This document shows positions 4,100-40,024 of a DNA stretch of 64,000 nt, piece after piece. This DNA comes from Bryobacterales bacterium (GTDB lineage: Bacteria; Acidobacteriota; Terriglobia; Bryobacterales; Bryobacteraceae), in NCBI GenBank assembly GCA_963771405.1, contig CAVYUL010000106.1, positions 22,725 through 86,724 on the forward strand, in the 5' to 3' direction. The position numbers and the translations under genes were made by a program. The notes under the pieces were generated by a model, which was given only the letters and a program-made list of their open reading frames with translations, did not search any database and had not been told where the DNA came from. The first letter of the stretch is position 1, and every line of letters starts with the position of its first letter.

Positions 4100-4142
4100 C
4101 CGCTGGCGAGGCTCCAGCCACCGGAATGCGGGGTCACGCGAA

Positions 4143-4235
4143 GCCAACGGGGACTGTCTCCTCTGTCCCTACAGATTACTGCTTCAAACGTCCTCGGTCT
4201 AACTTCGGTGGACAGAGTAGACTGTCCCCGTTGGC
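4143..4235. repeat. Long imperfect inverted repeat (26-nt arms, 41-nt spacer) between lon and the BNR gene
   Basis: Arm 1 (4143-4168) is GCCAACGGGGACTGTCTCCTCTGTCC. Arm 2 (4210-4235) is GGACAGAGTAGACTGTCCCCGTTGGC. The reverse complement of arm 2 differs from arm 1 at 2 positions. Confidence 0.7.
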
Positions 4236-4297
4236 ACGACGGTAACGCCGAGTGTTTTCCGGCAAGAAGGGCGGGCGAAGGATGATACTGTTGCCAA

Positions 4298-6640: not shown

Positions 6641-6641
6641 T

Positions 6642-10200: not shown

Positions 10201-10209
10201 CCACCCTGT

Positions 10210-11238
10210 ATGCGGTTCAGGCTCATCATCCTCGCGTTTGCTTGCGGGTTATCGGCGCGTCCTCAAAACGCAGCTTGTAATGCCGCCCTTAGCGATGCGA
10301 GTCTCGCGAGCGGCGAACAGGCAATGCGCGAAAAGCATTTTGCCGCTGCCGCGCAAAGCTTCGACGCTGCGCTAGACGCCTGCCCGGAGCGCCACTCCCT
10401 CCTGCTGCGTCTCTCTGACGCCAACGCGCGCCGCCGCGAATTTACTTCCGCAATTGCCGAGGCCCACCATTTTCTCGAACTCGAAAACGGCTCAATCGAA
10501 GGCGAATTGGCATTAGCAAACGCATATTTCATGGCGCAACAGTTCAGTCAGTCCCTGGCACAAGTAAATACGGTACTGAAATCAAATCCTGCTCAACCTG
10601 CCGCTCTCAAGCTGAAAGGCAACATCGAATACTTCAAAGGCGAATATTCGCAAGCCTTCGACACATTCATTGAATTGCTGGATCATCATCCCGACGACGA
10701 AGACGCCGCTTATATGCTGGGCAGAATCTATTATCAGGAAGGTCGCAGCGAACAAGCTGCGGGACAGTTCCAGCGCGTGCTAAGAATCAACCCGCACTCA
10801 TACAAGGCGCTCGACAATCTGGGCCTCTGCTATCAAGCTCTCGGCGATACCGAAATGGCCAAACGCTATTTCCTCACTTCCATCAAATACGCCGAAGAGA
10901 ACGATGCCGATTACGATTGGGCCTATGCGAATCTGGCCAATCTACTTTTGGAGCAGGGCGATGCCGAACGAGCCTACGCCGCTGCATCGAAGGCGGCCGA
11001 CCGTAACCCATACTCCGCTCGGAATTTCTATCTTGGCGGCAAAGCCCTTGCCCGCTTGGGCAAAACCGATCTGAGTATCAACTGGCTCGAACGCTCGGTG
11101 GCTCTTGATCCAAAGTATCCCGAGCCGCTTTACACGCTTGCCAAGCTTTACGCCGATACCGGAAAGAAAGAAGAAGCGAAAGCAACATTAGAAAAGTTCC
11201 GCCAAGTAAAAGCTGCCAACCCGCAGGAGCGCGAATAG
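10210..11238 (+). CDS. TPR repeat protein (secreted/lipoprotein-like)
   Basis: 342-aa ORF with N-terminal signal MRFRLIILAFACG. Successive 34-aa TPR-like units (e.g. AYMLGRIYYQEGRSEQAAGQFQRVLRINP). Confidence 0.7.
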   Translation: MRFRLIILAFACGLSARPQNAACNAALSDASLASGEQAMREKHFAAAAQSFDAALDACPERHSLLLRLSDANARRREFTSAIAEAHHFLELENGSIEGELALANAYFMAQQFSQSLAQVNTVLKSNPAQPAALKLKGNIEYFKGEYSQAFDTFIELLDHHPDDEDAAYMLGRIYYQEGRSEQAAGQFQRVLRINPHSYKALDNLGLCYQALGDTEMAKRYFLTSIKYAEENDADYDWAYANLANLLLEQGDAERAYAAASKAADRNPYSARNFYLGGKALARLGKTDLSINWLERSVALDPKYPEPLYTLAKLYADTGKKEEAKATLEKFRQVKAANPQERE

Positions 11239-12875
11239 TGAAATCTCTCTGGCTCGCGCTTCTTCCCTTGAGCGTTTTCTTCGCCGTACAAACCCCTTCC
11301 GCAAGCCGCATTCAATTTCGCAATGTTTCTGCCGAAGCGGGCATCGATTTTGTCCTCGAAAACAGCCCTACCGAGCAGAAACAGCTTATTGAGACCATGC
11401 CCGGCGGTGTGGTTGCCTTTGATTACGATGGCGACGGCCTTATCGACATTTTCTTCACCAACGGAGCCGACATTCCTTCCCTTGAAAAGAACCAAGCCAA
11501 ATACCGCAACCGGCTGTTCCGCAACCTGGGTCACATGCGTTTTAAAGACGTCACCGAAGAAGCCGGACTCGCCGGTGTTGGCTTCTCCATGGGAGCGGCT
11601 GCCGCGGATTTTGATAATGACGGCTTTCCCGACCTGTTCGTTGCCGGTGTCAAATCGAATCACCTTTATCGGAATTTAGGCAACGGCAAGTTCGAAGATG
11701 TCACTGCGAAAGCCGGCATCCGCAGCGATCTCTGGTCAGTCGGCGCCGGCTGGTTTGATTTTGACCGTGACGGCCATCTCGATCTGTTCGTCGTCAATTA
11801 CGTGAAATGGTCGCCGGAGAATCCGCCGTTTTGCGGCATTCCCAACGGAACCCGGGCGTATTGCCATCCTCGCCTCTACGCCGGCCTCGCGAACACCTTG
11901 TATCGCAATCGCGGCGATGGCACATTTGAAGACGTATCCCGCAAATCCGGAATTGCCTCTCAAATCGGCAAAGGCATGAGCGTCGCCTTCGCCGATTACG
12001 ATCAGGACGGCTATCCCGATATTCTCGTCAGCAATGACAAATTACTGAATTTCCTCTTCCACAATCTGCGTAACGGAAGCTTCGAAGAGGTCGCGCTCGA
12101 AGCGGGTGTGGCCCTGCCTGATAGTGGCAAGGAGATCTCAGGCATGGGCGCCGATTTTCGCGATTACGATAACGACGGTCTGCCCGATATCACGCTAGCC
12201 GCGCTCGCCGGCGAAACGTTCCCGCTGTTCCGCAACACTGGCAAGGGTCTTTTCATGGACGTAACCGCGCGCAGCCATATCGGCGTCTTGAGCAACAAAC
12301 GCAGCGGCTGGAGCACTGCTTTTGTCGACTTGGATAACGATGGCTGGAAAGACATATTCGTCTCTTGCTCCCACGTGAACGATACCGTCGAGGCATTCGA
12401 ATCCACTCACTACAAACTGCCGAACGCCGTCTTCGCCAATAGAGGTGACGGCACGTTTGAAGACGCCTCGGCCGCCGTCGGCGAAGACTTCCAAAAGCCC
12501 GGCGTTCACCGCGGCGCCGCTTTCGCCGATTTCAATAACGACGGCAAAGTGGACGTAGTGGTCAGCCTCATTGGAGATCATGCCGAACTCTGGCAAAACA
12601 CCAGCGACAACGATAACACTTGGCTGGATGTGAAACTGGTCGGCACAAAAAGCAATCGCGATGGCATTGGCGCGCAAATACGCATCGGCAAGCAATACAA
12701 CCAAATGACATCGGCAGTCGGATACGCTTCTTCGAGTCTCACTCCCGTTCACTTTGGCACTGGTCAGGCCAAGCAAGTCGATATCGAAATCCTTTGGCCC
12801 AGCGGCATTCGCCAGAATGTGAACGGTGTGCGCACAAACCAAATCGTCACCATTCGGGAAGCTAAGGCGGAGTGA
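11238..12875 (+). CDS. CRTAC1-family protein: FG-GAP/VCBS repeats plus ASPIC/UnbV C-terminal domain
   Basis: Signal peptide. Seven Ca-binding-like repeats (DYDGDGLIDIF, DFDNDGFPDLF, DFDRDGHLDLF, DYDQDGYPDIL, DYDNDGLPDI, DLDNDGWKDIF, DFNNDGKVDVV). C-terminal NRDGIGAQIRI...VHFGTG...ILWPSG. Confidence 0.85.
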   Translation: MKSLWLALLPLSVFFAVQTPSASRIQFRNVSAEAGIDFVLENSPTEQKQLIETMPGGVVAFDYDGDGLIDIFFTNGADIPSLEKNQAKYRNRLFRNLGHMRFKDVTEEAGLAGVGFSMGAAAADFDNDGFPDLFVAGVKSNHLYRNLGNGKFEDVTAKAGIRSDLWSVGAGWFDFDRDGHLDLFVVNYVKWSPENPPFCGIPNGTRAYCHPRLYAGLANTLYRNRGDGTFEDVSRKSGIASQIGKGMSVAFADYDQDGYPDILVSNDKLLNFLFHNLRNGSFEEVALEAGVALPDSGKEISGMGADFRDYDNDGLPDITLAALAGETFPLFRNTGKGLFMDVTARSHIGVLSNKRSGWSTAFVDLDNDGWKDIFVSCSHVNDTVEAFESTHYKLPNAVFANRGDGTFEDASAAVGEDFQKPGVHRGAAFADFNNDGKVDVVVSLIGDHAELWQNTSDNDNTWLDVKLVGTKSNRDGIGAQIRIGKQYNQMTSAVGYASSSLTPVHFGTGQAKQVDIEILWPSGIRQNVNGVRTNQIVTIREAKAE

Positions 12876-22219: not shown

Positions 22220-22681
22220 TTACACCCTCCACGGCTCGCTGAATATACTCGATTCGACGAACATCGTCGTCCACCGCCACTCCGTTTCTGTGACGATGAC
22301 GGACACGCCCGCTTCCTGACTCGCGTAACGAATGGCGTGCTCCAGTGCCTCCAGATAAAACTCGAATCCGCTCTGAGTAAGTTCCGCGTCTTTGGGTGGA
22401 GGAAGGTTCGCATGCACTCTACCGATGCGCTGCCGCGTATAGGTTTGTACTCCGATGAAATCGTCCTCTATCGCGAGAGTGACACCCACGGGCAGTTTTG
22501 GATAGGCGGCCTTGATCGCGGCCTTGCCCTTCGTATGCGCCAGCAGCATGTTCTCTTGCACAGTATCTGGATTACCGCCAAGGAAGGCGCTGAATTTCTC
22601 GGATTTGAGTTGGTAAGCAGCAGTGGCAGCGCCCCACAGGAAGCCGGCAGGGAACGAAGAGCCCGAGCTGGTGGCGCTCAC
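22220..22681 (-). pseudogene. GH1 beta-glucosidase relic
   Basis: The 153-codon ORF keeps the GH1 N-terminal signature FPAGFLWGAATAAYQ. It then jumps to a late-domain stretch (...DDFIGVQTY...GFEFYLEALEHAIRY...VIVTE) and is cut off. GH1 enzymes are about 450 aa. Confidence 0.6.
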
Positions 22682-23731: not shown

Positions 23732-24382
23732 GTGGAAGTCTTATGGGAGCAGAACACTCAATTTCCGATTCGCTCCGAAGGGAAGAATCGGATACCATTT
23801 CGGGACATCGGCTGGTGGCCAGGGGACGCGAAACTGCTAGAACTGACCGACCGCTCCGAATATTCGGAAAAGATTCCTGAGCTAGAGCCACGATGGTGGA
23901 TACCGCATCGCATTCGTTTCCTTGAAGCGCATGGCCTAGACATACACGCCGAGGTTTGGGACTATATCGAAAAGCCTTGGGGAAACAGATCGGTCGTGCC
24001 TGCCCCTGGCGACGGACTAGTCCTGAACAGCGATTTGTACGACGAAAATTCTGACCCCGCATCTGTCGACCTTTTCCAAATCGCTTGTCTTTCTGCCAAA
24101 ACGAAGATTCCTTTTGAAGATCTGCTCGCGCGGATCGACCGATATTCGGTACTTGGCGTGGAAATCCCCCGCCGGAGCGGCCCCAATATCGCACTGTCAT
24201 CTTCCGACCTGCAACTTCTGTCTTGCGACATCAGCGGAAGTTACGCCTTCCGCTGGCAAACGGACCACGCCGCCTCCGTTGGTAAACGCTACAATCCGGA
24301 GTTTTCAGGTACCAGGCTAGTTCTGGTAAGCGCAACCCTAAACAAAACATTAGGGGCCATCTGGACTTGTCCCCTAAATTGA
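23732..24382 (+). CDS. Hypothetical Trp-rich protein whose last codons lie inside the IS3 left end
   Basis: The frame is open from 23555 with no ATG before GTG 23732. The stop TGA (24380-24382) lies inside the IS3 left inverted repeat, so the native C-terminus is probably lost. Confidence 0.35.
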   Translation: MEVLWEQNTQFPIRSEGKNRIPFRDIGWWPGDAKLLELTDRSEYSEKIPELEPRWWIPHRIRFLEAHGLDIHAEVWDYIEKPWGNRSVVPAPGDGLVLNSDLYDENSDPASVDLFQIACLSAKTKIPFEDLLARIDRYSVLGVEIPRRSGPNIALSSSDLQLLSCDISGSYAFRWQTDHAASVGKRYNPEFSGTRLVLVSATLNKTLGAIWTCPLN

Positions 24383-24427: not shown

Positions 24428-24790
24428 ATGGGATTAGCTCGACGGAAGTTCACAAAAGAGTTCAAGCTGGCTGCGATTCAGCAGATGGAGGCGGGCTCAT
24501 CAACGGCGGAAGTGGCGCGGGCGTTTGAAGTCACCCCGAAGGTTTTGTACCGCTGGCGAGACGAGTTCCGGCACGGGCCGGGCAATGCCTTTCCGGGACG
24601 CGGGAAGCCGCGCTGGGACGAGACGCGCGTGGCACAACTGGAACGCAAGGTGGGGCAGCAGACGCTGGAGATTGATTTTTTGAAGGGGTGCTTGCAGCGC
24701 ATCGAGGAACAGCGGAAGCTGCAGGCATTGACTGGAAAGCCGCGATTTACCAGTACATTCAAACGCAAGTGGAGCAAGGGGGCCAGATGA
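24428..24790 (+). CDS. IS3-family transposase OrfA (HTH)
   Basis: MGLARRKFTKEFKLAAIQQMEAGSSTAEVARAFEVTPKVLYRWRDEF is the typical IS3 OrfA HTH. Followed by a leucine-zipper-like tail. Confidence 0.9.
   Translation: MGLARRKFTKEFKLAAIQQMEAGSSTAEVARAFEVTPKVLYRWRDEFRHGPGNAFPGRGKPRWDETRVAQLERKVGQQTLEIDFLKGCLQRIEEQRKLQALTGKPRFTSTFKRKWSKGAR
24676..24682 (+). promoter_or_regulatory. Candidate -1 programmed ribosomal frameshift heptamer T TTT TTG for OrfAB fusion
   Basis: In the orfA frame the codons are gaT TTT TTG. The -1 frame is open from here into orfB. An 8-bp stem lies downstream: CTTGCAGC (24691-24698) pairing with GCTGCAGG (24718-24725). Confidence 0.5.
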
Positions 24791-25629
24791 CTGCCTTGCG
24801 CATGTGTGAGTTAGGAACAGTGAGCCGGGCCGGCCTGTACCGGTTCGAGCCGAAGGACAAAGCGTCTGACGAAGATCTGGATCTGCGGGATGAGATCCAA
24901 CGAATCGCTCTCACCTTTCCGTTTTATGGCCGGCCCCGGATTACGGCGGAGCTGAAACGGCGCGGCTGGCCGGTCAATCATAAAAAGGTGGGCCGCCTCA
25001 TGCGCGAGGATAACTTGCTTTGCCTGCGGCGGCGGAAGTTCGTGGTGACCACCGATTCGAATCACAATCTGCGGATCTATCCCAATCTGGCGGGTGAGAT
25101 GGCTGTCACCGGCATCGATCAGCTCTGGCGCGCGGATATCACCTATATCCGGCTGGAGACGGAGTTCGTTTATCTGGCAGTGGTGTTGGACGCCTACTCA
25201 CGCAAAGTAGTGGGTTGGGCGTTGGATCGCCATCTGGAAGATGATCTGGCCATCGCTGCTCTGCAAATGGCGCTCCGGCACCGCAAACCAACGGCAGGGT
25301 TGACACATCATTCCGACCGCGGCGTGCAGTACGCCTCCCACGACTACATCGCTCTGCTGAAAGACCATGGCGCCCGCATCAGCATGAGCCGGCGTGGCAA
25401 TCCTTATGACAATGCAGCGTGCGAGTCCTTTATGAAGACTCTGAAATACGAAGAGGTTTATCGGCAGGAGTACCGTGACTTGGCCGAAGCCCGCGCTTCC
25501 ATCCAAACGTTCATCGAGAGAATCTATAACGGCAAGCGTCTCCACTCGGCGCTGGGTTACCGCCCGCCGATCGAGTTTGAACGTTCGCTGCTTACTCCTT
25601 CCACTGCCAAACCATTGGTGACCGCATGA
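24688..25629 (+). CDS. IS3-family transposase OrfB (DDE/rve integrase core)
   Basis: DDE context: WRADITYI, HHSDRGVQYAS, YDNAACESFMKTLKYEE. It lies in the -1 frame relative to orfA and overlaps it by about 100 nt. Confidence 0.9.
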   Translation: MLAAHRGTAEAAGIDWKAAIYQYIQTQVEQGGQMTALRMCELGTVSRAGLYRFEPKDKASDEDLDLRDEIQRIALTFPFYGRPRITAELKRRGWPVNHKKVGRLMREDNLLCLRRRKFVVTTDSNHNLRIYPNLAGEMAVTGIDQLWRADITYIRLETEFVYLAVVLDAYSRKVVGWALDRHLEDDLAIAALQMALRHRKPTAGLTHHSDRGVQYASHDYIALLKDHGARISMSRRGNPYDNAACESFMKTLKYEEVYRQEYRDLAEARASIQTFIERIYNGKRLHSALGYRPPIEFERSLLTPSTAKPLVTA

Positions 25630-26018: not shown

Positions 26019-26399
26019 TTGGCATCGGTCATTCCGACCTCGATTGAAGAGCAAGTAATATCCGCGATATATTTCGACGGCCGTACGATCGCCGCAGCCG
26101 TCAGAGTGGCGATCGGCACCCAGGTGTCCCCTGTCGAAATATGCCAAACATATGCAAAGTTCGCACCGCTTGTTCCGCCGCTGCCAAACTGGAACCTAGA
26201 TGCGCTCAAGAAACTCGTACCAGAAAAACTAGATGAATACCTCCTCTCCTATAACCTCAATCCCCATTTTCGCTCTGTCGTCACCGAGGTAACCACCGCC
26301 CACCTGTCCCTGGCGAAAGAGCACCTTGGCATATCAATCGAGGCCGCGTCACTGGCACTGCGCAAATATGAACAATTTGGCTTAAGGTTTTGCGGCTGA
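26019..26399 (+). CDS. Hypothetical protein (TTG start, no family recognised)
   Basis: 126-aa ORF directly right of the IS. No in-frame ATG near the start. The frame is open back to 25965. Confidence 0.25.
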   Translation: MASVIPTSIEEQVISAIYFDGRTIAAAVRVAIGTQVSPVEICQTYAKFAPLVPPLPNWNLDALKKLVPEKLDEYLLSYNLNPHFRSVVTEVTTAHLSLAKEHLGISIEAASLALRKYEQFGLRFCG

Positions 26400-26593: not shown

Positions 26594-27181
26594 TTACGTC
26601 ATTTGCGTCGCGGCGCAGCTCGCTGATGTGGGCCTCCAGCTCGGAGTTCCAAAAGCGCCGCAGCCACCCCCGGTGTGAGAGCCTCGGCTAGCGGTCCAAC
26701 AAGCACCCCGGATAGCTTGTGTAGGCACCCTAGCTGTCCCACATTCACGCCTAAGATCGGTCGACCGCTCTGCGTTTCGAGAGACGCGCTCCATGTTCAA
26801 GCGCAGCAACCGCTCGGTAACCCGTCCCTCTGGCGTCAAGGGCTCAATCATAAAATTCCGTATCGCGAAGCGGCGCTGCCAGATTTCCCTCAGCGGATTG
26901 AATGACGGAACAATTGCAGTTGAGAGAGCTGAGGCCTTGCACCTTACGCAAGCATAAGCCAAATCTCGAACTCGGAGGGAGGAACCCCATGCTTAAGGCT
27001 AATGATAGATCGATTTGGTGCGGCCAATAAGCATGCTCTTCATACAGAAGGCAGTATTCGCAACGTCGTTTGGCCCGAGCGGCGGAGCGCTCTACACCGC
27101 GACCGCCTTTCTTGAAGGTAGCGTCAAGAGGGTGAACACGAAGGCCCGCAAATTGATACGACAGAGTTTCCCAGGGGCCAT
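26594..27181 (-). pseudogene. HNH endonuclease relic with several frameshifts
   Basis: On the minus strand, ...RRCEYCLLYEEHAYWPHQID is in one frame, (I)ISLKHG in a second, and ...YACVRC...FNPLREIWQRRFAIRNFMIEPLTPEGRVTERLLRLN in a third (ORF 26594-26962). Together these rebuild the C-x-x-C...H-x-I-D-H-I-x-x-x-K-H-G-G...C-x-x-C-N...GR-T-x-x-L-L-x-L-N pattern of a standalone HNH family. The ends are approximate. Confidence 0.6.
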
Positions 27182-27463
27182 CGCTATTAATTAAGGGATT
27201 AGCCCAAAAAATCGCGGCGAATTAGAAAGCGGGCCGAAGAAAAGAAGAAGGGAGATTCGTCGACTTCTGCGAATTTCTCGCAAGAACGAGGAATGAGCTT
27301 CGGAATTTGCCAAGAGGCTGAGCATTTTTCACAGAATTTTGCGCATTCTGAGTTATAGGAGCTTACTTAGGCATGAGTTTCAGACAAATCGCCATACGAC
27401 TAGCCGTTAAGGAAGCGCTTTTCACCACCATGCGGGGAGAGACTGACCTCTGGAGAAATCACG

Positions 27464-28381
27464 ATGGACCCGGTATTACTTTTTGCAATTGGATCGTTTG
27501 TATTTCGCCGCGTGTCCATTGAGGCGCGGAAGAAGGCCGCGGAGGAATACCAATCCGCCGCGAGGGAATATGAACAGGCCCGCCAGAGGGCCGTGCAGGA
27601 GCGGCAAAAATGTCTGGAACTGCTGCGGGACTTGGCGCAATTCCGGCAGGCGGCCATGGGTTCTCGGTGGGGCCGCTTGCACACGTTGCTGATTGCCTGT
27701 GGGGTAAATGGCGGGATATTCGCACCGCCGAGAAAAATTTTTGGAGAAACCACCGAGCAAGAAGTGCGAGCGATTCTTGCGGATAATACAGGAGCGATGC
27801 TAGTCAAGAATAGAGCTTCGTCGAGCGACGCTGTGCTGATGGTCAGCGGGGGTGCGCTCTTAATCCGTGGGATCAGCTTCATGGATGCCCACGGCTGGGG
27901 ACACTTGCCATTTCTTCACCGGCATGTTCACGACGTTGCGTCGGCGATGGATTTGGGCGGCGTTGGGGACGTACTTGGGCCGATTGGCGACCTGGAGATT
28001 GCGACCGCTTTGAGCGGTGGACTATCCATACTCGGATTGGGGATCTCCATTGCCAACTTCATGAAGGCCGACAACTTGGAAAAGGAGGGCGGTCGTCTAC
28101 ACAGTGAAGCAGAGGGTTTAGACGAGAAGCAACGCGAGCTAGAGGCGCTCGGGCACCGCATTGTGGATTTGTGTGAGGAACTGAAGGCCGCCGCTTACGA
28201 ACTTTTTAAGTGGACGGTGGTGGGCGAGGAAACCGCGCGGCTTCGAAAGGACGGCCGGGCACGTCGAGTGGCTAGCTTGCCGAAGTGGCTCTTAAAGGGT
28301 CTGCTTCACAAGGCAAGGGAACTCTGGAGGACCATTGAAAAATCTCCTTTCCCCGAAGCTGCGGCCGAGGGCAAAGCTTGA
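27464..28381 (+). CDS. Operon gene 1: hypothetical 305-aa protein, charged helices flanking a Gly-rich hydrophobic core
   Basis: GGAG lies 9 nt upstream of the ATG. Residues 17-65 and 203-295 are highly charged and heptad-like. Residues 70-200 contain LIACGVNGGIFA, AVLMVSGGALLIRGISF and LSGGLSILGLGISIANF. No family recognised. Confidence 0.6.
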   Translation: MDPVLLFAIGSFVFRRVSIEARKKAAEEYQSAAREYEQARQRAVQERQKCLELLRDLAQFRQAAMGSRWGRLHTLLIACGVNGGIFAPPRKIFGETTEQEVRAILADNTGAMLVKNRASSSDAVLMVSGGALLIRGISFMDAHGWGHLPFLHRHVHDVASAMDLGGVGDVLGPIGDLEIATALSGGLSILGLGISIANFMKADNLEKEGGRLHSEAEGLDEKQRELEALGHRIVDLCEELKAAAYELFKWTVVGEETARLRKDGRARRVASLPKWLLKGLLHKARELWRTIEKSPFPEAAAEGKA

Positions 28382-28389
28382 GGGCGCGA

Positions 28390-28572
28390 ATGTTTGCGTT
28401 TATCAGGATAAAGGCGGTTATCGCCGAGATCAATGAGATCGAAGAGGCCTATGCGGATCTTGTCGAGGAACGCGAGCAGATTCTGAGGAGCATCAGCGCA
28501 AATGAGAAAACCGTACGGCTGATGATATCGGCTGCACTAGTGGCCGAGTTGGAGGCGGGAACGGAAATCTAA
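28390..28572 (+). CDS. Operon gene 2: hypothetical 60-aa acidic helical protein
   Basis: ATG 28390 lies 8 nt after the gene 1 stop and is preceded by GAGGG. Its stop overlaps the gene 3 start (TAATG). The ORF track alternative is TTG 28378. Confidence 0.4.
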   Translation: MFAFIRIKAVIAEINEIEEAYADLVEEREQILRSISANEKTVRLMISAALVAELEAGTEI

Positions 28573-28829
28573 TGGAACTGAGATGGATCTTGGGGTGTGT
28601 CGTGGCATCCATTCTGGCTTGCTTTCTTTCCGCGGAAATCTTTCGCCTGGTCCTCAAAGGCACTACCAAATGGAAGCTCAAGAAATTGAGAAAGCTGGAC
28701 ACTGAGGTCGATCGGCTCGCTCAAGACGACGACCACTGGAGCACTTTGTTGAGTGAACTGAGTGTGTTGGACAACGAAGGATTGCGCGACTGGCTTAACA
28801 AAATGCGCTCGGCGGGCTCGCCTGAGTGA
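28572..28829 (+). CDS. Operon gene 3: hypothetical 85-aa single-pass membrane protein
   Basis: N-terminal TM helix WILGCVVASILACFLSAEIF followed by a charged helical tail. The start is coupled to the gene 2 stop. Confidence 0.5.
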   Translation: MELRWILGCVVASILACFLSAEIFRLVLKGTTKWKLKKLRKLDTEVDRLAQDDDHWSTLLSELSVLDNEGLRDWLNKMRSAGSPE

Positions 28830-28863
28830 GCGGAGACTTAACCTTCAGGAGAAGGAGAAGAAC

Positions 28864-29355
28864 ATGTCATTTGGGCTAGATCAATTGGATAACCATCCAG
28901 TGACCGCCGTTGGCTTGGTGGTGGCTGTGTTCGGAGCGCTTGCTTTTTTGGTGAAGTTCTTGAACGATGTCTTCGGTTTTGTCAAGAATGTTCGCGAGAT
29001 AGGCGGCAAGAAAGGATCGGCGGACGCCGGCCCTCGGCAACGTAGAAGAAAAGGTTTTGTTTTACGACAGAAACCGGATCTGGCTAAGACGATCTTGACG
29101 GGGACGGCCGCCGGGGGGATCGGCTTGGGCATTGGCAGCGTGATCGCACGCGGGCAGCCGCAGCCGCTTGGGGAGGCACATCAGGATTCGTTGCATCATC
29201 ATCCTGGTGATCATCTTGGAGATGGCGTTGGCGCCCACGGCGGCGACTTGGGCCCTGCTGCCGACGTCCACGATCCCTTGAGCGCTGTTGCAGACCATGA
29301 TCACGGTTTTTGGCACTTCATCGCTCATATTTTTGATTCCTTCACCAACCAGTGA
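28864..29355 (+). CDS. Operon gene 4: hypothetical 163-aa membrane protein with glycine-zipper segment and His/Asp-rich tail
   Basis: Strong SD AGGAGAAGGAGAAG lies before ATG 28864; the ORF track start 28762 would overlap gene 3. TM helix VTAVGLVVAVFGALAFLV, a basic loop, then TGTAAGGIGLGIGSVIA. The last 60 aa contain 11 His and 9 Asp. Confidence 0.55.
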   Translation: MSFGLDQLDNHPVTAVGLVVAVFGALAFLVKFLNDVFGFVKNVREIGGKKGSADAGPRQRRRKGFVLRQKPDLAKTILTGTAAGGIGLGIGSVIARGQPQPLGEAHQDSLHHHPGDHLGDGVGAHGGDLGPAADVHDPLSAVADHDHGFWHFIAHIFDSFTNQ

Positions 29356-29402
29356 AGGACGGTTTTGGGGTCCGAAGGGAAGTCTTAATTTAAGGAGAGT
29401 GT

Positions 29403-30509
29403 ATGGCGGCTCCAAGTCCAGCGCGGCATCCGCAAAGCGCGCAAGTTGTTCGCATGTCTGTTCCTGGCCGATGCGAAAGGTTCTTCTGGTTTATAGGCGG
29501 ATTCGACTCAGAGACCCTGGGGAGAGCAGAGTGCCGCGCCGTGCGGTCGAAGTATTCATCTATGGGCGCGTTGATTCTGCTGACGGCGCTGTTGGCAAGT
29601 TGCTCGGGAGGCTACGCGATTTATACGATTTTTCGCAATGAATGGGCGACCGCCATGCTGGCGCTGCTTTGGGGGCTGATGATTCTTGTGTTAGACCGAT
29701 TTCTGGTTTCGTCTTCCAGGAAGTCGGCCGTGCTTAAGAACTTCTTTAAGGAGCAAGATGCGGCGCGTCCGTATACAGCGACGGCGCCGTGGGCTCTGCT
29801 CGGCGTGCGATTACCGATCGCGATCGCGATTGGTCTAGTGGTCTCGAAGCCGATAGAAGTGCGGCTGATGGATCCCTTGATTGTTCAGTATGAGGGTGAC
29901 CGGAAAAAGGCTGAGTTGTTGGAGGCGCCGGATGACCGCGATTTGGCGAAGCAACGGGATGAGGGGGCAGCTTTAAGTGCGAAAATTACCACGAAAGAGG
30001 GGGATGTAAAGGAAGCGCGTGCGGCCTTCAACGCCGAGATGGACGGGAGAGGTAGTCCGAAGTGGGGCTATGGAGATATCGCTAAGAAGAAAGAGGAAAC
30101 AATAGGCAAGCTAGAAGACGACCTTACTGCGCTAAGAAAGGAGAAAATAGGAAAAGACCAAAAGCTCAAGCAGGACGGTGATAACCGCCGGATGGAGGTC
30201 AATCAGAACGCGCAAGAGCGGTTGGCGAGGCGTTCGGTCATTAGCGACCTGGTCGTGATTCAGAAGCTTGATGCAGGAGATACACCGGAGGCGCGGGACA
30301 GAAGCCCAGTTATCGCAGCCATGTCGATCTTTTTGACGCTGTTGTTTGTGCTGATTGAGTGTATGCCCGTCATCGCGAAGGCATTGTCGCCGTATGACCC
30401 GTATGATGCAAAGTTGCAAGAAATTGAGGACGGAGCGGTGACGGATTGTCTTGTGGAAGCGAGACGCCAATATGCAGCCTCGGGGATGAGCGATGGAGCG
30501 GCTTCGTGA
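29403..30509 (+). CDS. Operon gene 5: DUF4407-family membrane protein
   Basis: AAGGAG lies 5 nt before the ATG. The N-terminal pattern FFWFIGGFDSETLGRAECRAVRSKYSSMGALILLTALLASCSGGYAIYTIF...LLWGLMILVLDRFLV matches my recollection of PF14362 (DUF4407). Three N-terminal TM helices, a ~150-aa Lys/Glu/Asp-rich coiled-coil-like middle, and one C-terminal TM helix. Confidence 0.7.
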   Translation: MAAPSPARHPQSAQVVRMSVPGRCERFFWFIGGFDSETLGRAECRAVRSKYSSMGALILLTALLASCSGGYAIYTIFRNEWATAMLALLWGLMILVLDRFLVSSSRKSAVLKNFFKEQDAARPYTATAPWALLGVRLPIAIAIGLVVSKPIEVRLMDPLIVQYEGDRKKAELLEAPDDRDLAKQRDEGAALSAKITTKEGDVKEARAAFNAEMDGRGSPKWGYGDIAKKKEETIGKLEDDLTALRKEKIGKDQKLKQDGDNRRMEVNQNAQERLARRSVISDLVVIQKLDAGDTPEARDRSPVIAAMSIFLTLLFVLIECMPVIAKALSPYDPYDAKLQEIEDGAVTDCLVEARRQYAASGMSDGAAS

Positions 30510-30528
30510 AAAAAGCGCCCGAGGGCGC
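30509..30528 (-). terminator. Terminator-like hairpin with U-tract on the minus strand
   Basis: The minus strand reads GCGCC-CTCG-GGCGC-TTTTTT (5-bp all-GC stem). On the plus strand the hairpin is preceded by A6 and has no T-tract after it. Confidence 0.3.
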
Positions 30529-30860: not shown

Positions 30861-31115
30861 ATGGGCATGACCATGCACTTCAACAATTCTGACATCCAGG
30901 CCAAGCTTGAGCAGTGGGCAACGCAAACCGGGCGTCCTGCGGAGGAACTGGTCGAAGACGTGATGGTCGGCTACTTCGACGGAATGGCCGAAGTGTGCCA
31001 GACGCTCGACAACCGCTATGACGACATCAAAAGCGGGAAAGCGAAGCTCATTCCCGGCGACGTAGCCTTTGCACGGCTCATGGAAGGTATCGAAGACCGC
31101 CGTCCCAAGGCATGA
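30861..31115 (+). CDS. Ribbon-helix-helix antitoxin (ParD-like), apparently orphan
   Basis: 84-aa ORF with an RHH-like N-terminus (MHFNNSDIQAKLEQWATQTGRPAEELVEDVMVGYF) and a ParD-like tail (DDIKSGKAKLIPGDVAFARLMEGI). The stop overlaps an ATG (ATGA) that opens only a 9-codon ORF. Confidence 0.55.
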   Translation: MGMTMHFNNSDIQAKLEQWATQTGRPAEELVEDVMVGYFDGMAEVCQTLDNRYDDIKSGKAKLIPGDVAFARLMEGIEDRRPKA

Positions 31116-31404
31116 GGGAGTGCCAGCACCCTTCAATATAGTCGTCCAGCGATACAACAGTTCCTTTGGTAAATAACTGATTTCGTGAGGTTTCCGCACC
31201 CGTCCGAAATCGAAATGGGGGACACTGCGGGCACCGAACTGCAGCCAAATCCCCTTCTTCGCTCTCCCGTTTTTGCCACTCGAAAATCCTGGTCACAGAA
31301 GTTGAAAATTTTTTATTTCTTTTCTTTCCCTCCACTTACAAGAACTTTTTCGTTGGTCGCGAACGCGCGCTTCGGACAATAACTCCAGAAAGTAAGTTCT
31401 CTGT

Positions 31405-32247
31405 ATGGTCTCTGAAAACGATCTCAACTCCGAATTCGAAAAATTCGAAAAATCTGAAAATTCCTCTTCCGTGCCGCCGTCGCCGGAAGAACAAAATCCG
31501 CCGCATAACTCGCGCTATCCCTATCACGCGCACCTCATCGCCGAAAAGGAAAAGCAAAACTGCGGCCGCACCGGACCCACCAGTCCCGAAGGCAAAGCCA
31601 TCTCTTCGCGCAACGCCCTCCGCCACGGCTGCTGCGCCAAAACTCTCATTCTCGAAGGCGAAAAACTCGAAGAGTGGATCAAACTCTGCGCCCGCTGGGA
31701 AGCCGCCTATCCATCCGAACATCCCCTGCTCCAGGATTTCATCCTGAAAACCGCCCAAGCCGAATGGCGTCGTATCCGTGTCCTCAATAACTTCGAAGAT
31801 TTCGTCGCCTCCCACGCCATGACCATGGATACTTACGATCCCGAAACCCGCAAACTCTACGACCTCAAACATCGCTACAACGTCGCCGCCGAACGCACCT
31901 TCCAGCGCGAATTCCGCATGCTCGATCACTTCTTCAAAACCAACTGCGAACCCAAGAAAGCGGAAAAACCCAAAGAAAAAGAGCCTGAGCCCGAACCCGA
32001 AGACGATCAACCCGTCCACGACCCCAACAAACACGTCTATCGCATCTACAACGCCGAAACCGGCGAATACATCATCTGCGGCGAAAACCCACCCGTCATC
32101 TATCCGCCCGAGCCCGGCTGGGTCCCGCGCCCAATCATCCCCGGCCAGTATTATCCAGATCACCCCTCCAACTGGAAATACCCCGGCAACCCCAAACACC
32201 GCTTCACCAAGGACAAACTCAAATGGAGTACGGAACCCCAATCGTAA
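31405..32247 (+). CDS. Hypothetical 280-aa protein with GPTSPEGKAISSRNALRHG motif
   Basis: The ORF has a Glu/Lys/Phe-rich start encoded by 9-bp tandem units, a conserved-looking basic motif, a KPKEKEPEPEPEDD linker and a Pro/Tyr/Trp-rich C-terminus. No named family. Confidence 0.5.
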   Translation: MVSENDLNSEFEKFEKSENSSSVPPSPEEQNPPHNSRYPYHAHLIAEKEKQNCGRTGPTSPEGKAISSRNALRHGCCAKTLILEGEKLEEWIKLCARWEAAYPSEHPLLQDFILKTAQAEWRRIRVLNNFEDFVASHAMTMDTYDPETRKLYDLKHRYNVAAERTFQREFRMLDHFFKTNCEPKKAEKPKEKEPEPEPEDDQPVHDPNKHVYRIYNAETGEYIICGENPPVIYPPEPGWVPRPIIPGQYYPDHPSNWKYPGNPKHRFTKDKLKWSTEPQS

Positions 32248-32337
32248 GATTGGGGACCGCGAGCGAAGCGAGCGTCTTACACCACTCCGTTCCAACCGGG
32301 CCTCGCAATCTCCCGCTACACTAAACGTTACCCACCC

Positions 32338-35166
32338 ATGGAGACCCATCCCTTGAAACAATCCACCGTTATCCTCACACTCCTTTTGCTCTTATCCGTC
32401 GCCTCCTTCGCCCATCAAGATGACGACGATAATCCCCCCCGTCAAATCATCCCGAATTCGGGCCAGCGTCTCACCCCAACCGCCCCGCTCGGAAGCCGTT
32501 TCGAACCATTAAATCCGGCCCTCCCCCAACATCCCGATTACCTCGCCGGTCAAGCCGTCACTACCATCACCAGCCCCGACCACAAAACCCTCCTCATCTT
32601 GACCTCCGGCTACAACGTGTTAAATTACTCCACCGGTCCCAACGCCGGCAACGCCGATCCCGCCGCATCCAACCAATACGTCTTCATCTACGACATCTCC
32701 AATAAAATCCCCATCAAGAAACAAGTCGTACAAGTCCCCAACACCTACAACGGCATTGCCTTCGATCCATCTCACCCAACCTTCTATGTTTCCGGCGGCG
32801 TCGACGACAGCGTTCATATCTTCGATCTCGCCCCGGCCGATCATCTCTGGCACGAACGCAGCGGCAGCCCCATTTCGCTAGGTCATCCCAACGGCGTCGG
32901 CCTCCAAGTAAAGCCGCAAGCCGCCGGCATCGCAGTCACCGCCGATGGCAGCCACTTAGTAATCGCCGATTACTACAACGACGCGCTCACGATCCTCGCA
33001 AATACCAACGGCACCTGGGCGAAATCCGCCGAGCTCGACCTGCGCCCAGGCAAAATCGATCCCGCCAAATTCTCCGGCGTGCCAGGCGGTGAGTATCCAT
33101 TCTGGGTTTCAATCAAAACCAACAACACCGCCTATGTATCAAGCCTGCGCGATCGCGAAATCGATGTCGTCAGCCTCGGCGGCACGCCCTCCCTAACAGC
33201 GCGAATCAAGGTCAAAGGCCAACCCAACAAAATGATCTTGAACACCGCTCAAACCAAGCTGTTTGTCGCCGAAGACGAAACCGATACCGTCGATATCATT
33301 GATACCGCCGCCAACCGCGTCACAGCCACCATCGACGCCGGCGCGCCTCCCGGCCTCTTGCCCGCCGGGTTCCAGGGCCACAACACCAACAGTGTCGCGC
33401 TCTCACCGGACGAGAAAACTCTCTACGTCACCAATGGCACCACCAACGACGTCGCAGTCATCAGTCTCGCCGCTCATTCCGTCATCGGACTCATTCCCAC
33501 CGGTTGGTACCCCACCTCCGTCAGCACTACCGCCGATGGAAAGTATCTCTACGTCACTAACTACAAATCGCTAACCGGCCCAAACCGCCAATTCTGCAAC
33601 TCCGGCTGCTATGGCAGCAATCAATATGGCGAACAGCTCATCAAAGCCGGATTCCAAAGTTTCCCCGCGCCGACCGAAACCCAGCTCCTCCGTCTCACTT
33701 CCATTGTCGCCGCCAACAACCATTTCGGCCGCGGCTTGTCCCAAACTGACAGAGCGAAGATCGCGTTCCTGCATAGCAAAATCAAACACGTTATCTTCAT
33801 CATCAAAGAAAACCGCACCTATGATCAGGTCTTAGGCGACTTACCGCTGGGCAATGGCGACCCCGAAATCACCGAGTTCGGCCAAGCCGTCACGCCGAAC
33901 CTGCATGCGCTCGCTACCTCTTTCGTCACACTCGATAATTTTTACGACCGCTCCGAGGTCAGCATGGATGGTTGGCCTTGGACAGTCTCCGCCCGTGCGC
34001 CTGACGTCGTCGAACGGCAAGTGCCTGTCAATTACGCCGAACGCGGCCTCACAAACGATTCCGAAGGGACCAATCGCAACATCAACGTTGCCTTGCCCAC
34101 TCTCGCCGAACGCTTAGCCGCCAATCCCTTATCGCCTGATGATCCCGATGTTCTGCCTGGCACCGCCAATACCGCCGCGCCTGATAATCGCCTTCATGAA
34201 CAGAATCGCGGCTACATCTGGAATGACGCTCTGCGAGCCGGTTTAAGCCTCCGCAACTATGGCTTCTTTATCGATTTGGCTCGCTACAATCTGCCTTCCG
34301 CCCAAGCCCAATTCAATATTCCTGAACTCGAAATGCCGTTCGAAACCAAAACGCAGGTTTCTTACGCAACCGACGAAGCGCTGCGCCCGCTTACGGATAT
34401 TTACTTCCGCGGCTTCGATAATTCCTTCCCCGATTACTGGCGTTATCGCGAATGGGAACGCGAGTTTGACGCGAACTACGCAAAGACCGGCCTGCCCAAC
34501 CTCGAACTGGTCCGTTTCATGCATGACCACACCGGTGATTTCCAAACCGCCATCGACGGCATCAACACCGTTGATTTACAGGAAGCCGATAACGATTACG
34601 CGGTCGGTTTGCTAGCCGAGAAAATCGCCAATAGCGTTTACAAAAACAACACTTTGATTTTCACAATCGAAGACGATTCGCAAGCCGGCGCCGATCACGT
34701 CGATAGCCATCGCAGCATCGCATTCGTCGCCGGCCCGTACGTCAAACAGCATGCGCTCGTTTCCCGCGCCTATAACACCGTCGATTTTCTCCGCACCATC
34801 GAAGAGATTCTTGGCCTGAAGCCAACCAACCTGAGCGACGCGCTCGCCGTCCCCATGTTGGATGTCTTCGAAGAAAGGCTGCACGATTGGACATTCAAAG
34901 CCGTTCCTTCCGCGCTGCTGGCAAACACCAAGCTTCCTATTCCATCCGCCGCCTTTGCCGGATTAAAGCCGATGCAGCCTACCCGCGACGCCGCCTATTG
35001 GGCCGCCGCGTCCAAAGGCATGGACTTCACCGCCGAAGATCGAATCGATTTCGCCAAATACAATCACATTCTCTGGCAAGGCATGATGGGCGACAAAGCC
35101 TATCCCGAAAAGCCCACCGGTCTGAATCTCCGAAAGAATCGAGGGCAGTTGCGCCCCGATAAATAG
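32338..35166 (+). CDS. Secreted bifunctional YncE-like beta-propeller / phosphoesterase (PLC-AcpA family) protein
   Basis: 942 aa with a signal peptide. Propeller-type repeats (LYVTNGTTNDVAVISL, KYLYVTNYKS). Phosphoesterase motifs IKHVIFIIKENRTYDQVLGD and IEDDSQAGADHVDSHRS. Confidence 0.8.
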   Translation: METHPLKQSTVILTLLLLLSVASFAHQDDDDNPPRQIIPNSGQRLTPTAPLGSRFEPLNPALPQHPDYLAGQAVTTITSPDHKTLLILTSGYNVLNYSTGPNAGNADPAASNQYVFIYDISNKIPIKKQVVQVPNTYNGIAFDPSHPTFYVSGGVDDSVHIFDLAPADHLWHERSGSPISLGHPNGVGLQVKPQAAGIAVTADGSHLVIADYYNDALTILANTNGTWAKSAELDLRPGKIDPAKFSGVPGGEYPFWVSIKTNNTAYVSSLRDREIDVVSLGGTPSLTARIKVKGQPNKMILNTAQTKLFVAEDETDTVDIIDTAANRVTATIDAGAPPGLLPAGFQGHNTNSVALSPDEKTLYVTNGTTNDVAVISLAAHSVIGLIPTGWYPTSVSTTADGKYLYVTNYKSLTGPNRQFCNSGCYGSNQYGEQLIKAGFQSFPAPTETQLLRLTSIVAANNHFGRGLSQTDRAKIAFLHSKIKHVIFIIKENRTYDQVLGDLPLGNGDPEITEFGQAVTPNLHALATSFVTLDNFYDRSEVSMDGWPWTVSARAPDVVERQVPVNYAERGLTNDSEGTNRNINVALPTLAERLAANPLSPDDPDVLPGTANTAAPDNRLHEQNRGYIWNDALRAGLSLRNYGFFIDLARYNLPSAQAQFNIPELEMPFETKTQVSYATDEALRPLTDIYFRGFDNSFPDYWRYREWEREFDANYAKTGLPNLELVRFMHDHTGDFQTAIDGINTVDLQEADNDYAVGLLAEKIANSVYKNNTLIFTIEDDSQAGADHVDSHRSIAFVAGPYVKQHALVSRAYNTVDFLRTIEEILGLKPTNLSDALAVPMLDVFEERLHDWTFKAVPSALLANTKLPIPSAAFAGLKPMQPTRDAAYWAAASKGMDFTAEDRIDFAKYNHILWQGMMGDKAYPEKPTGLNLRKNRGQLRPDK

Positions 35167-35186: not shown

Positions 35187-37370
35187 ATGCGCCGATTACT
35201 CTTCCTCCTCGCTCTCTCCAGCGCCGCTCTTTCAGCCCAAGTGAAAGTGAAAGGCGACGAAATTGGTGGCGTCGTCACCAGTCCCCAAGGCCCCGAAGCC
35301 GGAGTTTGGGTCATCGCGGAAACAACCGGTCTTCCCACTCGTTACATCAAAGAAGTTGTTACCGATGATCGCGGCCGCTATCTTATCCCCGCGCTCCCCA
35401 GCGCCACTTACTCTGTCTGGGCTCGCGGTTATGGCTTAGTGGATTCGCCAAAAATACAGAGCAAGCCCGGCAAGCAGATCAACTTACACCCAACGGTCGC
35501 GCCCGACAAGAAGACCGCCGCGCAGTTGTATCCCGGCAATTATTGGTACGCCATGCTCACCATTCCCGAAAAGAATGAGTTCCCCGGTACCGGCCCCAAT
35601 GGCAATGGCATCTCGCCCAACGTCAAGACGCAGGAACAGTGGCTGCATCTGATCAAGACCGATAGTTGCGAATCCTGCCATCAATTAGGCAACGCCTACA
35701 CCCGCACGATTCCTAAGCTCTTTGAGAACTTCGATTCGCCCGCGCAAGCCTGGATGCGCCGTGTGCAATCGGGCCAAGCCGGTAGCGCCATGGTCGGCGG
35801 TCTGAATCAACTCGGCCCCCAACGCGCCACCGCTCAATTCGCCGATTGGACCACTCGCATCGCTCACGGCGAACTCCCGTTCGACGCCCCACCGCGCCCG
35901 CAAGGCATCGAGCGCAACATCGTAATCACTCAAGTGGATTGGGCCGGCGAAAAGGTTTATCTGCACGATGAGATCTCAAGTGATAAACGCAATCCTCGCG
36001 TCAACGCCAACGGCCTGATCTACGGGTCGCCCGAAGAAAGCAGTGACTTCCTCCCTGTGCTCGATCCCGTTCACTACACACTCAGCCGCGTCAAAGTCCC
36101 CTACCGCGATCCTGATACGCCCGGCCAGCCCAAACCTCTCCAACCCTCCGCCATTTGGGGCGATGAAGCGATTTGGGATAGCCACACCACTGTCCACAAT
36201 CCCATGTTCGATGAGCGTGGCCGCGTCTGGCTCACCGCTCGCATCCGCGCCACTAAGAACCCCGCCTTTTGCCAGGATGAGTCCAGCAGTATCTCTGCAA
36301 AGCTCACGCCGCTCGCCACTTCCGGCCGTCAACTCGCTGTCTACGATCCCGCTACCGGCCAGACTTCGCTCATCGATACCTGCTTCAGCACGCACCATCT
36401 TGTCTTTGCCTCCGACGCCAACAACACTCTCTGGACCAGTTCCGGCGGTGGTGGCGGCGTCGTCGGTTGGTTGAACACCAGGCTGTGGGACGCAACCCAC
36501 GATGCCCAACAATCGCAAGGTTGGACCGAGCTTGTGCTCGACACCAACGGCAACGGCAAACGCGATCCCTATCTTGAATCCGAACAAAAAGTGCTCACCG
36601 CGCCCAGCGGCGAAAGCCTCGGCACTTCCTCCGCGCTAACCGGCCCCGTTGCCGATCCTACTCGCGACACCAGATTGAACGCCGCCTTCTACGGCCTCGC
36701 AGTCGCTACCGATGGTGCTGTTTGGGGTAGCGTCCTCGGCTTCCCCGGCGGCATCGTGCGCTTGAATCCCGGCCCCAATCCTCCCGAAACCGCGCTCGCC
36801 GAATACTACGAAGTGCCCTGGCACAACCCCAACGCGCCCGTCTGGGGCTTCTCACCGCGCGGCATGGATATCGATGGCAACAACGTCGTGTGGGTCGCTC
36901 TCGGCAGCGGCCATCTCGCCAGCTTCGATCGCGCCAAATGCAAGGGCCCGCTCAACGGACCCACTGCCACCGGTCAACATTGTCCCGAAGGCTGGACGCT
37001 CTATCCCACGCCCGGTCCCAATTTCCACAACATCAAGATCTCCGGCAGTGCCGATTCCCATTACTACGATTGGGTCGATCGCTTCGACACCCTCGGCCTC
37101 GGCAACAACACACCCATCATCACCGGCAATTCATCTGATTCGTTGATCGCTCTCGTCAACGGCAAGTGGGTTGTCATGCGCGTGCCATATCCCTTGGGCT
37201 TCTTCGCCAAAGGCATGGACGGCCGCATCGATGATCCCAACACAGGTTGGAAAGGCAAAGGTGTTTGGACAACCTGGGGCACTCGCACGCCTTTCCACAG
37301 CGAGACGGGGAAGGGAACTACCAGTAAAGTCGTTCACTTTCAGATCCGCCCCAACCCTCTCGCCGACTGA
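35187..37370 (+). CDS. Secreted CarboxypepD_reg-like domain protein with a single CxxCH haem-binding motif
   Basis: 727 aa with signal peptide MRRLLFLLALSSAALSAQ. N-terminal Ig-like regulatory domain (GVWVIAETTGLPTRYIKEVVTDDRGRYLIPALPSATYSVWA). CESCH at codons 161-165 (nt 35667-35681). Confidence 0.6.
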   Translation: MRRLLFLLALSSAALSAQVKVKGDEIGGVVTSPQGPEAGVWVIAETTGLPTRYIKEVVTDDRGRYLIPALPSATYSVWARGYGLVDSPKIQSKPGKQINLHPTVAPDKKTAAQLYPGNYWYAMLTIPEKNEFPGTGPNGNGISPNVKTQEQWLHLIKTDSCESCHQLGNAYTRTIPKLFENFDSPAQAWMRRVQSGQAGSAMVGGLNQLGPQRATAQFADWTTRIAHGELPFDAPPRPQGIERNIVITQVDWAGEKVYLHDEISSDKRNPRVNANGLIYGSPEESSDFLPVLDPVHYTLSRVKVPYRDPDTPGQPKPLQPSAIWGDEAIWDSHTTVHNPMFDERGRVWLTARIRATKNPAFCQDESSSISAKLTPLATSGRQLAVYDPATGQTSLIDTCFSTHHLVFASDANNTLWTSSGGGGGVVGWLNTRLWDATHDAQQSQGWTELVLDTNGNGKRDPYLESEQKVLTAPSGESLGTSSALTGPVADPTRDTRLNAAFYGLAVATDGAVWGSVLGFPGGIVRLNPGPNPPETALAEYYEVPWHNPNAPVWGFSPRGMDIDGNNVVWVALGSGHLASFDRAKCKGPLNGPTATGQHCPEGWTLYPTPGPNFHNIKISGSADSHYYDWVDRFDTLGLGNNTPIITGNSSDSLIALVNGKWVVMRVPYPLGFFAKGMDGRIDDPNTGWKGKGVWTTWGTRTPFHSETGKGTTSKVVHFQIRPNPLAD

Positions 37371-37390: not shown

Positions 37391-40024
<2,634 letters not shown>

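Follow-up and report, generated by a model that had tools for sequence, protein, structure and literature searches.

The described systems that come closest to the locus reported here are the DUF4407 protein family (PF14362), the "4TM" effector of cyclic-oligonucleotide-based antiphage signalling systems (CBASS; PADLOC model PDLC00716) together with effectors of the RexB type, the phage shock protein (Psp) system, and the PDC systems of PADLOC with other uncharacterized defence-island operons. We here compare with them a five-gene operon (g1 to g5, positions 27464-30509) in a 64,000-nucleotide stretch of the genome of a Bryobacterales bacterium (Acidobacteriota; GenBank assembly GCA_963771405.1, contig CAVYUL010000106.1, positions 22,725 to 86,724), referred to below as the window. 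A preliminary description of the window had proposed that this operon encodes a membrane-acting module. Comparison with related loci indicates that the conserved unit is the four-gene cassette g1-g4, to which the DUF4407 gene g5 is a separable add-on, and we tentatively interpret the cassette as a conflict module that belongs to the accessory genome, has spread horizontally and acts at the cytoplasmic membrane.

The last product, g5, is a full-length DUF4407 member with the four transmembrane helices and the long helical insert of the family; most of the relatives examined stand alone, whereas g5 closes an operon that is conserved here and in three other loci. Like the CBASS 4TM and RexB-type effectors, g5 is small, polytopic and non-enzymatic, and its setting resembles a defence island. 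However, its match to the 4TM model is weak (E = 0.0026, 15.5 bits, 59 of 302 profile positions, over the first two transmembrane segments, TM1-TM2) and is found in 3 of 21 relatives; there is no cyclase, sensor or RexA-like partner, and g1-g4 have no counterpart in these systems. The window neighbours tested with PADLOC gave no match at all, to a cyclase (CD-NTase) or to anything else, and no cyclase is listed among the genes of the related loci. What the module shares with the enzyme-free transmembrane effectors of abortive infection is its general kind and nothing more.

The likeness to Psp lies in the logic of the operon, which combines an amphipathic helical protein with small bitopic proteins downstream of it and with a small soluble protein; the cassette differs in having no sequence relationship to PspA_IM30, PspB or PspC, and in a distribution that is rare, patchy and tied to genomic islands. 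As with the PDC operons, the cassette is recognized by its gene order and its neighbourhood of defence genes, but none of the 5,027 models of PADLOC-DB v2 matches g1-g4 (zero matches for g2, g3 and g4, and for g1 only PbeC at E = 0.34), and the cassette consists solely of membrane and helical products, enzymes such as an NTPase or a nuclease being absent. There were no Pfam holin matches and no lysin-like neighbour in the window that would point to a holin/spanin/lysis cassette. Components of type IV secretion or conjugation (VirB2/3/5/6-type, Trb) likewise gave no Pfam matches, and conjugation genes lie near only one of the retrieved loci (L019; such loci carry L numbers throughout).

Operon structure and conservation

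The operon consists of the following open reading frames (ORFs):

27464-28381, + strand: g1, 305 aa
28390-28572, + strand: g2, 60 aa
28572-28829, + strand: g3, 85 aa, start overlapping the g2 stop (TAATG)
28864-29355, + strand: g4, 163 aa
29403-30509, + strand: g5, 368 aa, DUF4407 protein

All five ORFs are present with the coordinates and sizes first described for them, and the intergenic gaps of 8, -1 (TAATG), 34 and 47 nt were reproduced. Shine-Dalgarno-like motifs precede g1 (GGAG), g2 (GAGGG), g4 (AGGAGAAGGAG) and g5 (AAGGAG) at a normal distance, as had been reported for every start; for g3 the nearest motif is a GGAGG 16 nt upstream, so that its start probably depends on the TAATG coupling. 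The operon is thus tightly packed and probably co-translated.

To take a census of related loci, custom g1-g5 profiles were searched against all ORFs of the retrieved loci. The intact g1-g5 order was found in four independent loci, namely the window, L013/L014/L024, L023 and L025/L026, with g1 of the window 36-44% identical to g1 of the other three. The preliminary description had regarded a gene order confined to this strain as grounds for abandoning the module; in fact L013/L014, L023 and L025/L026 carry the quintet too, with identities of 36-46%, and the module is not refuted on this point. The cassette proteins have about 300 (g1), 65 (g2), 90 (g3) and 150 aa (g4), and intergenic distances range from -20 to +55 nt, with a TAATG overlap in the window and ATGA overlaps in L013 and L023. 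The identities of all five proteins co-vary between loci: between the window and L001 they are 60/50/42/48/64% for g1 to g5, and between the window and L025 38/35/32/34/43%. Ratios of nonsynonymous to synonymous substitution (dN/dS) between L013 and L023 are 0.24 for g1, 0.34 for g2, 0.30 for g3, 0.46 for g4 and 0.37 for g5, which indicates that even the 60-aa and 85-aa ORFs are under purifying selection, fairly relaxed and typical of accessory genes. Since homologues occur in the same order elsewhere and selection is purifying, all five are genuine genes.

The quintet is not obligatory. An intact g1-g4 cassette without DUF4407 is found in L019, L020 and L021 (one alphaproteobacterial metagenome-assembled genome, MAG, and two unclassified metagenome contigs), and DUF4407 genes without the cassette occur in L011, L015, L017 (a Solibacteraceae MAG), L027 (a Fulvitalea plasmid), the P0017 contig and 15 Lak megaphage records. 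The five-gene module first proposed is therefore a real conserved operon, yet not an evolutionary unit as a quintet; the conserved unit is g1-g4, and DUF4407 is the part that comes and goes.

This separability raises the question of whether g1-g4 and DUF4407 are two units of independent function that happen to be neighbours in one lineage, the quintet being an accident of island packing. Besides the loci that carry only one of the two, the neighbour-joining tree of 21 DUF4407 proteins speaks for such independence, with operon-linked and solo members interleaved, as does a profile-profile comparison (hhalign) in which g1 and g5 show no relationship. However, g5 lies directly behind g4 in all four intact linked loci, at -4 to +55 nt and with an ATGA overlap in L013 and L023, and its identities track those of g1-g4 over 36-77% divergence, favouring long co-inheritance and co-expression. 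This position and co-divergence argue for long-standing co-expression in the linked lineage rather than accidental adjacency, and we consider functional independence somewhat unlikely.

Several copies of the cassette are decaying. The g1 copies of L001-L008 have lost their first ~90 codons to a complete Tn3-family transposon, one end of which lies within the gene. The L001 element (3353-7572) encodes a DDE_Tnp_Tn3 transposase and a tyrosine recombinase and is bounded by terminal inverted repeats of 56 nt (3353-3408 and 7517-7572, 96% complementary), the right end lying inside g1. We considered whether the cassette is cargo of this transposon and rejected the idea, because the inverted repeat ends inside g1; the cassette is therefore a target of the transposon. 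The truncated g1 recurs in eight metagenome contigs from different samples, and in L004 (931-1320) a further deletion has joined g3 out of frame to a remnant of g4, with g5 intact. Such variants would be expected of dispensable or costly genes.

The cassette proteins

A full-HMMER search with the g1 profile against 1.84 billion representative proteins retrieved 52 clusters at E<1e-3, 31 of them at E<1e-10, nearly all of 280-310 aa. Relatives were found in metagenome contigs resembling the window, a Hyphomicrobiales MAG, an Asticcacaulis MAG and Roseateles puraquae; this rare yet taxonomically broad occurrence suggests horizontal transfer. A word-indexed search of 5.8 billion clusters retrieved two g1 relatives and none of g4, missing the 40%-identical L013 copy, while a scan of genome contigs yielded one locus and a scan of metagenome contigs three, two of them already known. 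The contigs of the two g1 relatives, like those of g5 relatives, have their genes in the order seen in the window.

The first member of an unnamed family of proteins of about 300 aa is thus g1. It has an N-terminal hydrophobic helix, amphipathic heptad-periodic helices at residues 18-66 and 200-262 (heptad/amphipathic periodicity p<0.01), a central Gly-rich hydrophobic segment at 177-197 and a C-terminal SYELFKWTVVGEE motif that is highly conserved in g1 alignments. The hydrophobic peaks, including that of the Gly-rich core that had been noted for g1, are moderate at the family level, and g1 may be peripheral rather than integral to the membrane. A Pfam scan of 33 family members gave scattered coiled-coil matches, each in at most two members; eight longer members carry no domain fusions, and PDB sequence profiles revealed no solved structure of any g1 relative. 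The one marginal PDB-profile match, to apolipophorin-III (E = 0.0037), was judged to be coiled-coil noise.

The second gene directly follows g1 in every copy of the cassette, as detected by a custom profile, and its alignment spans nine loci. Its product is an acidic helical protein, as first described, with 12 acidic and 6 basic residues and no transmembrane segment. The single-pass nature of g3 was confirmed by one strong N-terminal transmembrane segment (family-mean hydropathy 2.28), which is followed by a basic juxtamembrane stretch and a helical tail with conserved DHW and ELSxLDxxGRRxW motifs. A similar N-terminal segment in g4 (family-mean hydropathy 2.23) is followed by a basic loop, a G/A-rich small-residue segment, an acidic His/Asp-rich tail that holds most of the protein's 12 His residues, and a C-terminal amphipathic helix (periodicity p = 0.009). 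In the earlier picture of g4, the membrane segment and the His/Asp tail therefore stand, but the proposed glycine zipper is only weakly hydrophobic across homologues. Because a basic stretch follows the transmembrane segment in both g3 and g4, the positive-inside rule would place their C-terminal parts in the cytoplasm.

Searches of g1-g4 against Pfam, NCBIfam, PADLOC, PHROGs and PDB sequences returned nothing significant or consistent; the only PHROG match was to phrog_1193 ("hemolysin", E = 0.011), across 19 residues of g3. In agreement with the preliminary description, no recognizable enzymatic or nucleotide-binding family was found in any of the five products (Pfam, NCBIfam, PADLOC, PHROGs), and no profile or fold match to a housekeeping machinery emerged from Pfam, NCBIfam, PDB or Foldseek.

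The psp operon, pspA-B-C-D, encodes a helical scaffold and then small bitopic membrane proteins. Our operon could by analogy be a Psp-like envelope-stress or membrane-maintenance module, in which g1 would be a PspA/Vipp1-like scaffold, g3 and g4 PspB/PspC-like sensors or anchors, g2 a small regulator, and the DUF4407 protein a client or partner. Gene sizes and types do parallel those of pspA-B-C-D, the helices of g1 are strongly amphipathic (and apolipophorin-III, its marginal match, is a lipid-binding helix bundle), no component is toxin-like or enzymatic, and in L020 the cassette is chromosomal, beside the envelope-related MacB and BlaR. On the other hand, PspA_IM30, PspB and PspC are unmatched by the window proteins (E<=1) and by 33 members of the g1 family (E<=0.1), and no PspF-type regulator is associated with the cassette. 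A stress system would moreover be expected to be widespread and vertically inherited, whereas the g1 family is rare and patchy and usually lies amid toxin-antitoxin, defence or mobile genes. A Psp-like role is therefore unlikely.

The DUF4407 protein

The assignment of g5 to DUF4407 was confirmed (PF14362, E = 8e-51, 173.5 bits against a cut-off of 31.3, profile positions 6-295 of 297), and the same domain is precomputed in twenty of its relatives. Hydropathy shows four transmembrane peaks (residues 55-73, 81-102, 130-148 and 303-325), and the AlphaFold2 (AF2) model, with a predicted local distance difference test score (pLDDT) of 80.5, is all helical, with long helices at 130-213 and 225-328. 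Between TM3 and TM4 these form a helical hairpin of about 135 aa (157-291), which the charge distribution suggests to be periplasmic under the positive-inside rule. The operon products had been described together as membrane or coiled-coil proteins, and the second label does not hold for g5: its long helices have no heptad hydrophobic periodicity, so that the hairpin consists of charged helices and not of a classic coiled coil.

Across 21 DUF4407 sequences, an arginine in TM3 (R136, window positions ~29808-29810) and a glutamate in TM4 (E319, ~30357-30359) are invariant, and the motif DRFLVSSxRK and an acidic tail, SPFDPYDAxLQExE, are conserved. The two residues may form an intramembrane charge pair, and such a buried pair would fit either an ion path or a role in gating.

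The family spans several bacterial phyla as well as megaphages. A homologue is present in all 15 Prevotella Lak megaphage genomes MK250015-MK250029 (for example MK250024.1, 25701-26606), with 24-25% identity, E values down to 4e-18 and 86% coverage, in records that are unannotated. Foldseek searches of BFVD returned only uncharacterized phage proteins as the nearest folds. Against the PDB, the best Foldseek match of g5 had E = 0.07 and a template-modelling (TM) score below 0.3, the matches being to transmembrane domains of ABC transporters and to alpha-pore-forming toxins, which amount to helical noise; PDB sequence profiles gave FadA, which is coiled-coil noise. In the searchable literature DUF4407 receives three incidental mentions only, with no function described.

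Genomic neighbourhoods

The preliminary description had placed the operon in the kind of neighbourhood where defence systems accumulate, and the neighbourhoods of its homologues are in keeping with this: defence, toxin-antitoxin or mobile-element genes lie within ~5 kb of the cassette in six of seven independent contexts, a small sample with no background control. Strong PADLOC matches account for three of the seven contexts and toxin-antitoxin or mobile genes for three others. The genes found in each context are the following:

L025 (878-6149): TIR protein matching PDC-S66 and ThsB models (E = 6e-48); 1,228-aa type IIG methyltransferase/PglX-like gene
L021 (defence genes 5229-6218 and 9773-10963): bSEFIR/TIR protein (E = 2e-21; for bSEFIR E = 4e-19), HicB, DUF433 protein, ankyrin protein; Schlafen-AlbA_2 ATPase matching pAgo-associated models
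L019 (defence gene 10937-12052): SoFic (E = 2.5e-46), MobA/MobL relaxase, TraG-like protein, integrase
L013: cassette bracketed by a BrnT pair and a PIN/PSK_trans_fac pair
L001: PIN, ParA, tyrosine recombinases, Tn3-family transposase
Window: IS3, RelB-like ORF
L020: MacB, epoxide hydrolase, BlaR/BlaI

Small membrane proteins together with a small acidic cytosolic protein resemble membrane toxins with their antitoxins, or the Sie/Eex exclusion proteins. The cassette has this composition, and it could serve the maintenance of mobile elements as a membrane addiction module, or entry or superinfection exclusion on integrative or conjugative elements. In L019 its neighbours on either side are a TraG-like coupling protein and a MobA/MobL relaxase, with an integrase nearby, the window copy adjoins IS3, the L013 copy is bracketed by toxin-antitoxin pairs, and g2 has a sub-threshold Pfam match to SieB (E = 0.07). 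The SieB match is insignificant, however, and most contexts are without conjugation genes. In addition, tblastn with three members of the g1 family retrieved nothing from 72,556 plasmid and 50,697 phage records, IMG/VR scans likewise yielded no relative, four or five genes are many for an addiction or exclusion module, and the L001 transposon disrupts the cassette instead of carrying it. We therefore regard maintenance or exclusion as very unlikely.

That the module responds to metal or pH, with the His/Asp-rich tail of g4 binding metal or sensing protons, is extremely unlikely: the DH and HxD repeats of this tail are conserved in composition in eight homologues, but there is no match to a transporter, metallochaperone or metal-regulator family (Pfam, NCBIfam), the neighbours are not metal-homeostasis genes, and acidic His-rich tails can be simply disordered.

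A putative membrane conflict module

The interpretation that we tentatively favour is that of an accessory conflict module at the cytoplasmic membrane. At its core would be the four-gene cassette, with g1 (about 300 aa) as an amphipathic helical protein associated with the membrane, g2 as a small acidic cytosolic helix, and g3 and g4 as bitopic membrane proteins whose helical or acidic tails are cytoplasmic. In the lineage of the window, L013, L023 and L025, the cassette would be co-transcribed and partly translationally coupled with the four-transmembrane DUF4407 protein. We propose that these proteins may form a complex of the cytoplasmic membrane with a role in conflict between genomes, either as phage defence by abortive infection or as exclusion. 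In such a complex g1 and g2 might keep the small membrane subunits silent as long as there is no trigger, the output would be permeabilization or depolarization of the membrane, and the DUF4407 protein could be an optional extra membrane effector or ion-conducting subunit. The mechanism, and with it any effector function such as abortive infection or pore formation, is purely what we infer. In favour of a conflict module we count the conserved gene order, the co-divergence of the proteins, the rarity and patchiness of the family, its neighbourhoods, the decay variants, the membrane features, the GC skew of the operon (see below) and the viral relatives of DUF4407.

Several results weigh against this interpretation. 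No protein matches a known defence model, PADLOC giving nothing for g1-g4 and only the weak 4TM match for g5, and neither a sensor nor an enzyme is among the products, an unusual composition for a defence system of several genes. As the five-gene unit is not obligatory, models in which DUF4407 is the effector are weakened. The absence of g1 from the plasmid, phage and IMG/VR collections indicates that the cassette is not typical mobile-element cargo. The L020 context is not obviously related to defence or mobile, and the neighbourhood evidence as a whole comes from seven independent contexts without statistical control. The membrane integration of g1 is uncertain given its moderate hydropathy, and its AF2 model, built on a 3-sequence alignment, is unreliable (pLDDT 48.7).

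A bolder and quite unlikely form of the conflict-module interpretation would make g1-g4 a hitherto unrecognized type of enzyme-free multi-subunit membrane machine, spread horizontally between bacterial phyla, that senses infection or envelope perturbation directly at the membrane and opens an ion path, with DUF4407 and its invariant intramembrane Arg/Glu pair as a new family of ion-conducting effectors that is shared by phages such as the Lak megaphages. Should the cassette indeed serve conflict, the known defence modules would be joined by one that is made up of membrane proteins throughout and is free of enzymes, and DUF4407 would gain a first functional handle. What is new in any case are four protein families, g1-g4, that are missed by current annotation resources and whose alignments can seed models, and a first contextual clue for DUF4407. 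Their practical importance is limited by their rarity (52 g1 clusters among 1.84 billion proteins) and by hosts that are uncultured or little studied.

Composition and flanks of the operon

Two further features flank the coding region of the operon:

27195..27463, + strand: non-coding leader upstream of g1, GC 0.476, with no family-matching ORF and no Rfam match
30515..30528, no strand assigned: GC-rich hairpin GCGCCCGAGGGCGC, 6 nt past the g5 stop codon

The leader is the probable promoter region of g1; a sigma-70 consensus scan detected no promoter in it, and Rfam gave zero matches in the window and in the leader. In L013 (6040-6110) and L023 (390-460), which share 77% protein identity, a block of ~70 nt in front of g1 is conserved and contains an extended -10-like motif (TGnTAAGAT / TGnTACAAT), an equivalent of which was not seen in the leader of the window. 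The hairpin GCGCCCGAGGGCGC is a possible terminator of the operon; its A-tract lies on the 5' side of the + strand, and the terminator scan therefore assigns it to the - strand.

The operon had been thought to lie in a low-GC patch, at about 50% against 60% in its flanks. This was not borne out by calculation, the GC content of the operon being 0.552 as compared to 0.563±0.012 in the other 3-kb windows (22nd percentile), and the 270-nt leader is the sole AT-richer stretch. What sets the operon apart is its GC skew of +0.199, as compared to -0.061±0.082 for the other 3-kb windows, none of which equals it. This skew could reflect a foreign origin, or merely the purine-rich codons of proteins rich in E, K, R, G and A. 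The coding-strand skew of the downstream + strand genes at 32338-35166, 35187-37370 and 37391-40024 is -0.13 to -0.26, opposite to that of the operon. Neither flanking direct repeats that would mark island borders nor a tRNA gene were detected within the window.

Of the three neighbours to which the preliminary description had drawn attention, the IS3 element was confirmed at 24428-25629, where orfA (HTH_Tnp_1) and orfB (rve integrase core) overlap. The presumed HNH relic could not be upheld: a CxxC...H motif is present on the - strand near 27010-27110, yet there are zero Pfam matches at E<=1. The orphan antitoxin corresponds to a RelB-like ORF of 84 aa at 30861-31115, for which support is weak (NCBIfam E = 1.1e-5, below the cut-off; Pfam Unstab_antitox E = 0.009), and the flanking small ORFs include no recognizable toxin partner.

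Three other + strand ORFs in the flanks, at 31405-32247 (280 aa), 23732-24382 (216 aa) and 26019-26399 (126 aa), had no match in Pfam, NCBIfam, PADLOC or PHROGs, and the ORF of 341 aa found at 31336-32361 on the opposite strand is unlikely to be genuine. On the - strand at 22220-22681, an ORF of 153 aa matches only the first ~17 residues of the glycoside hydrolase family 1 signature (Pfam E = 1.7e-4); this ORF is likely to be the remnant of a pseudogene, which suggests that the region upstream of the operon is degraded and variable.

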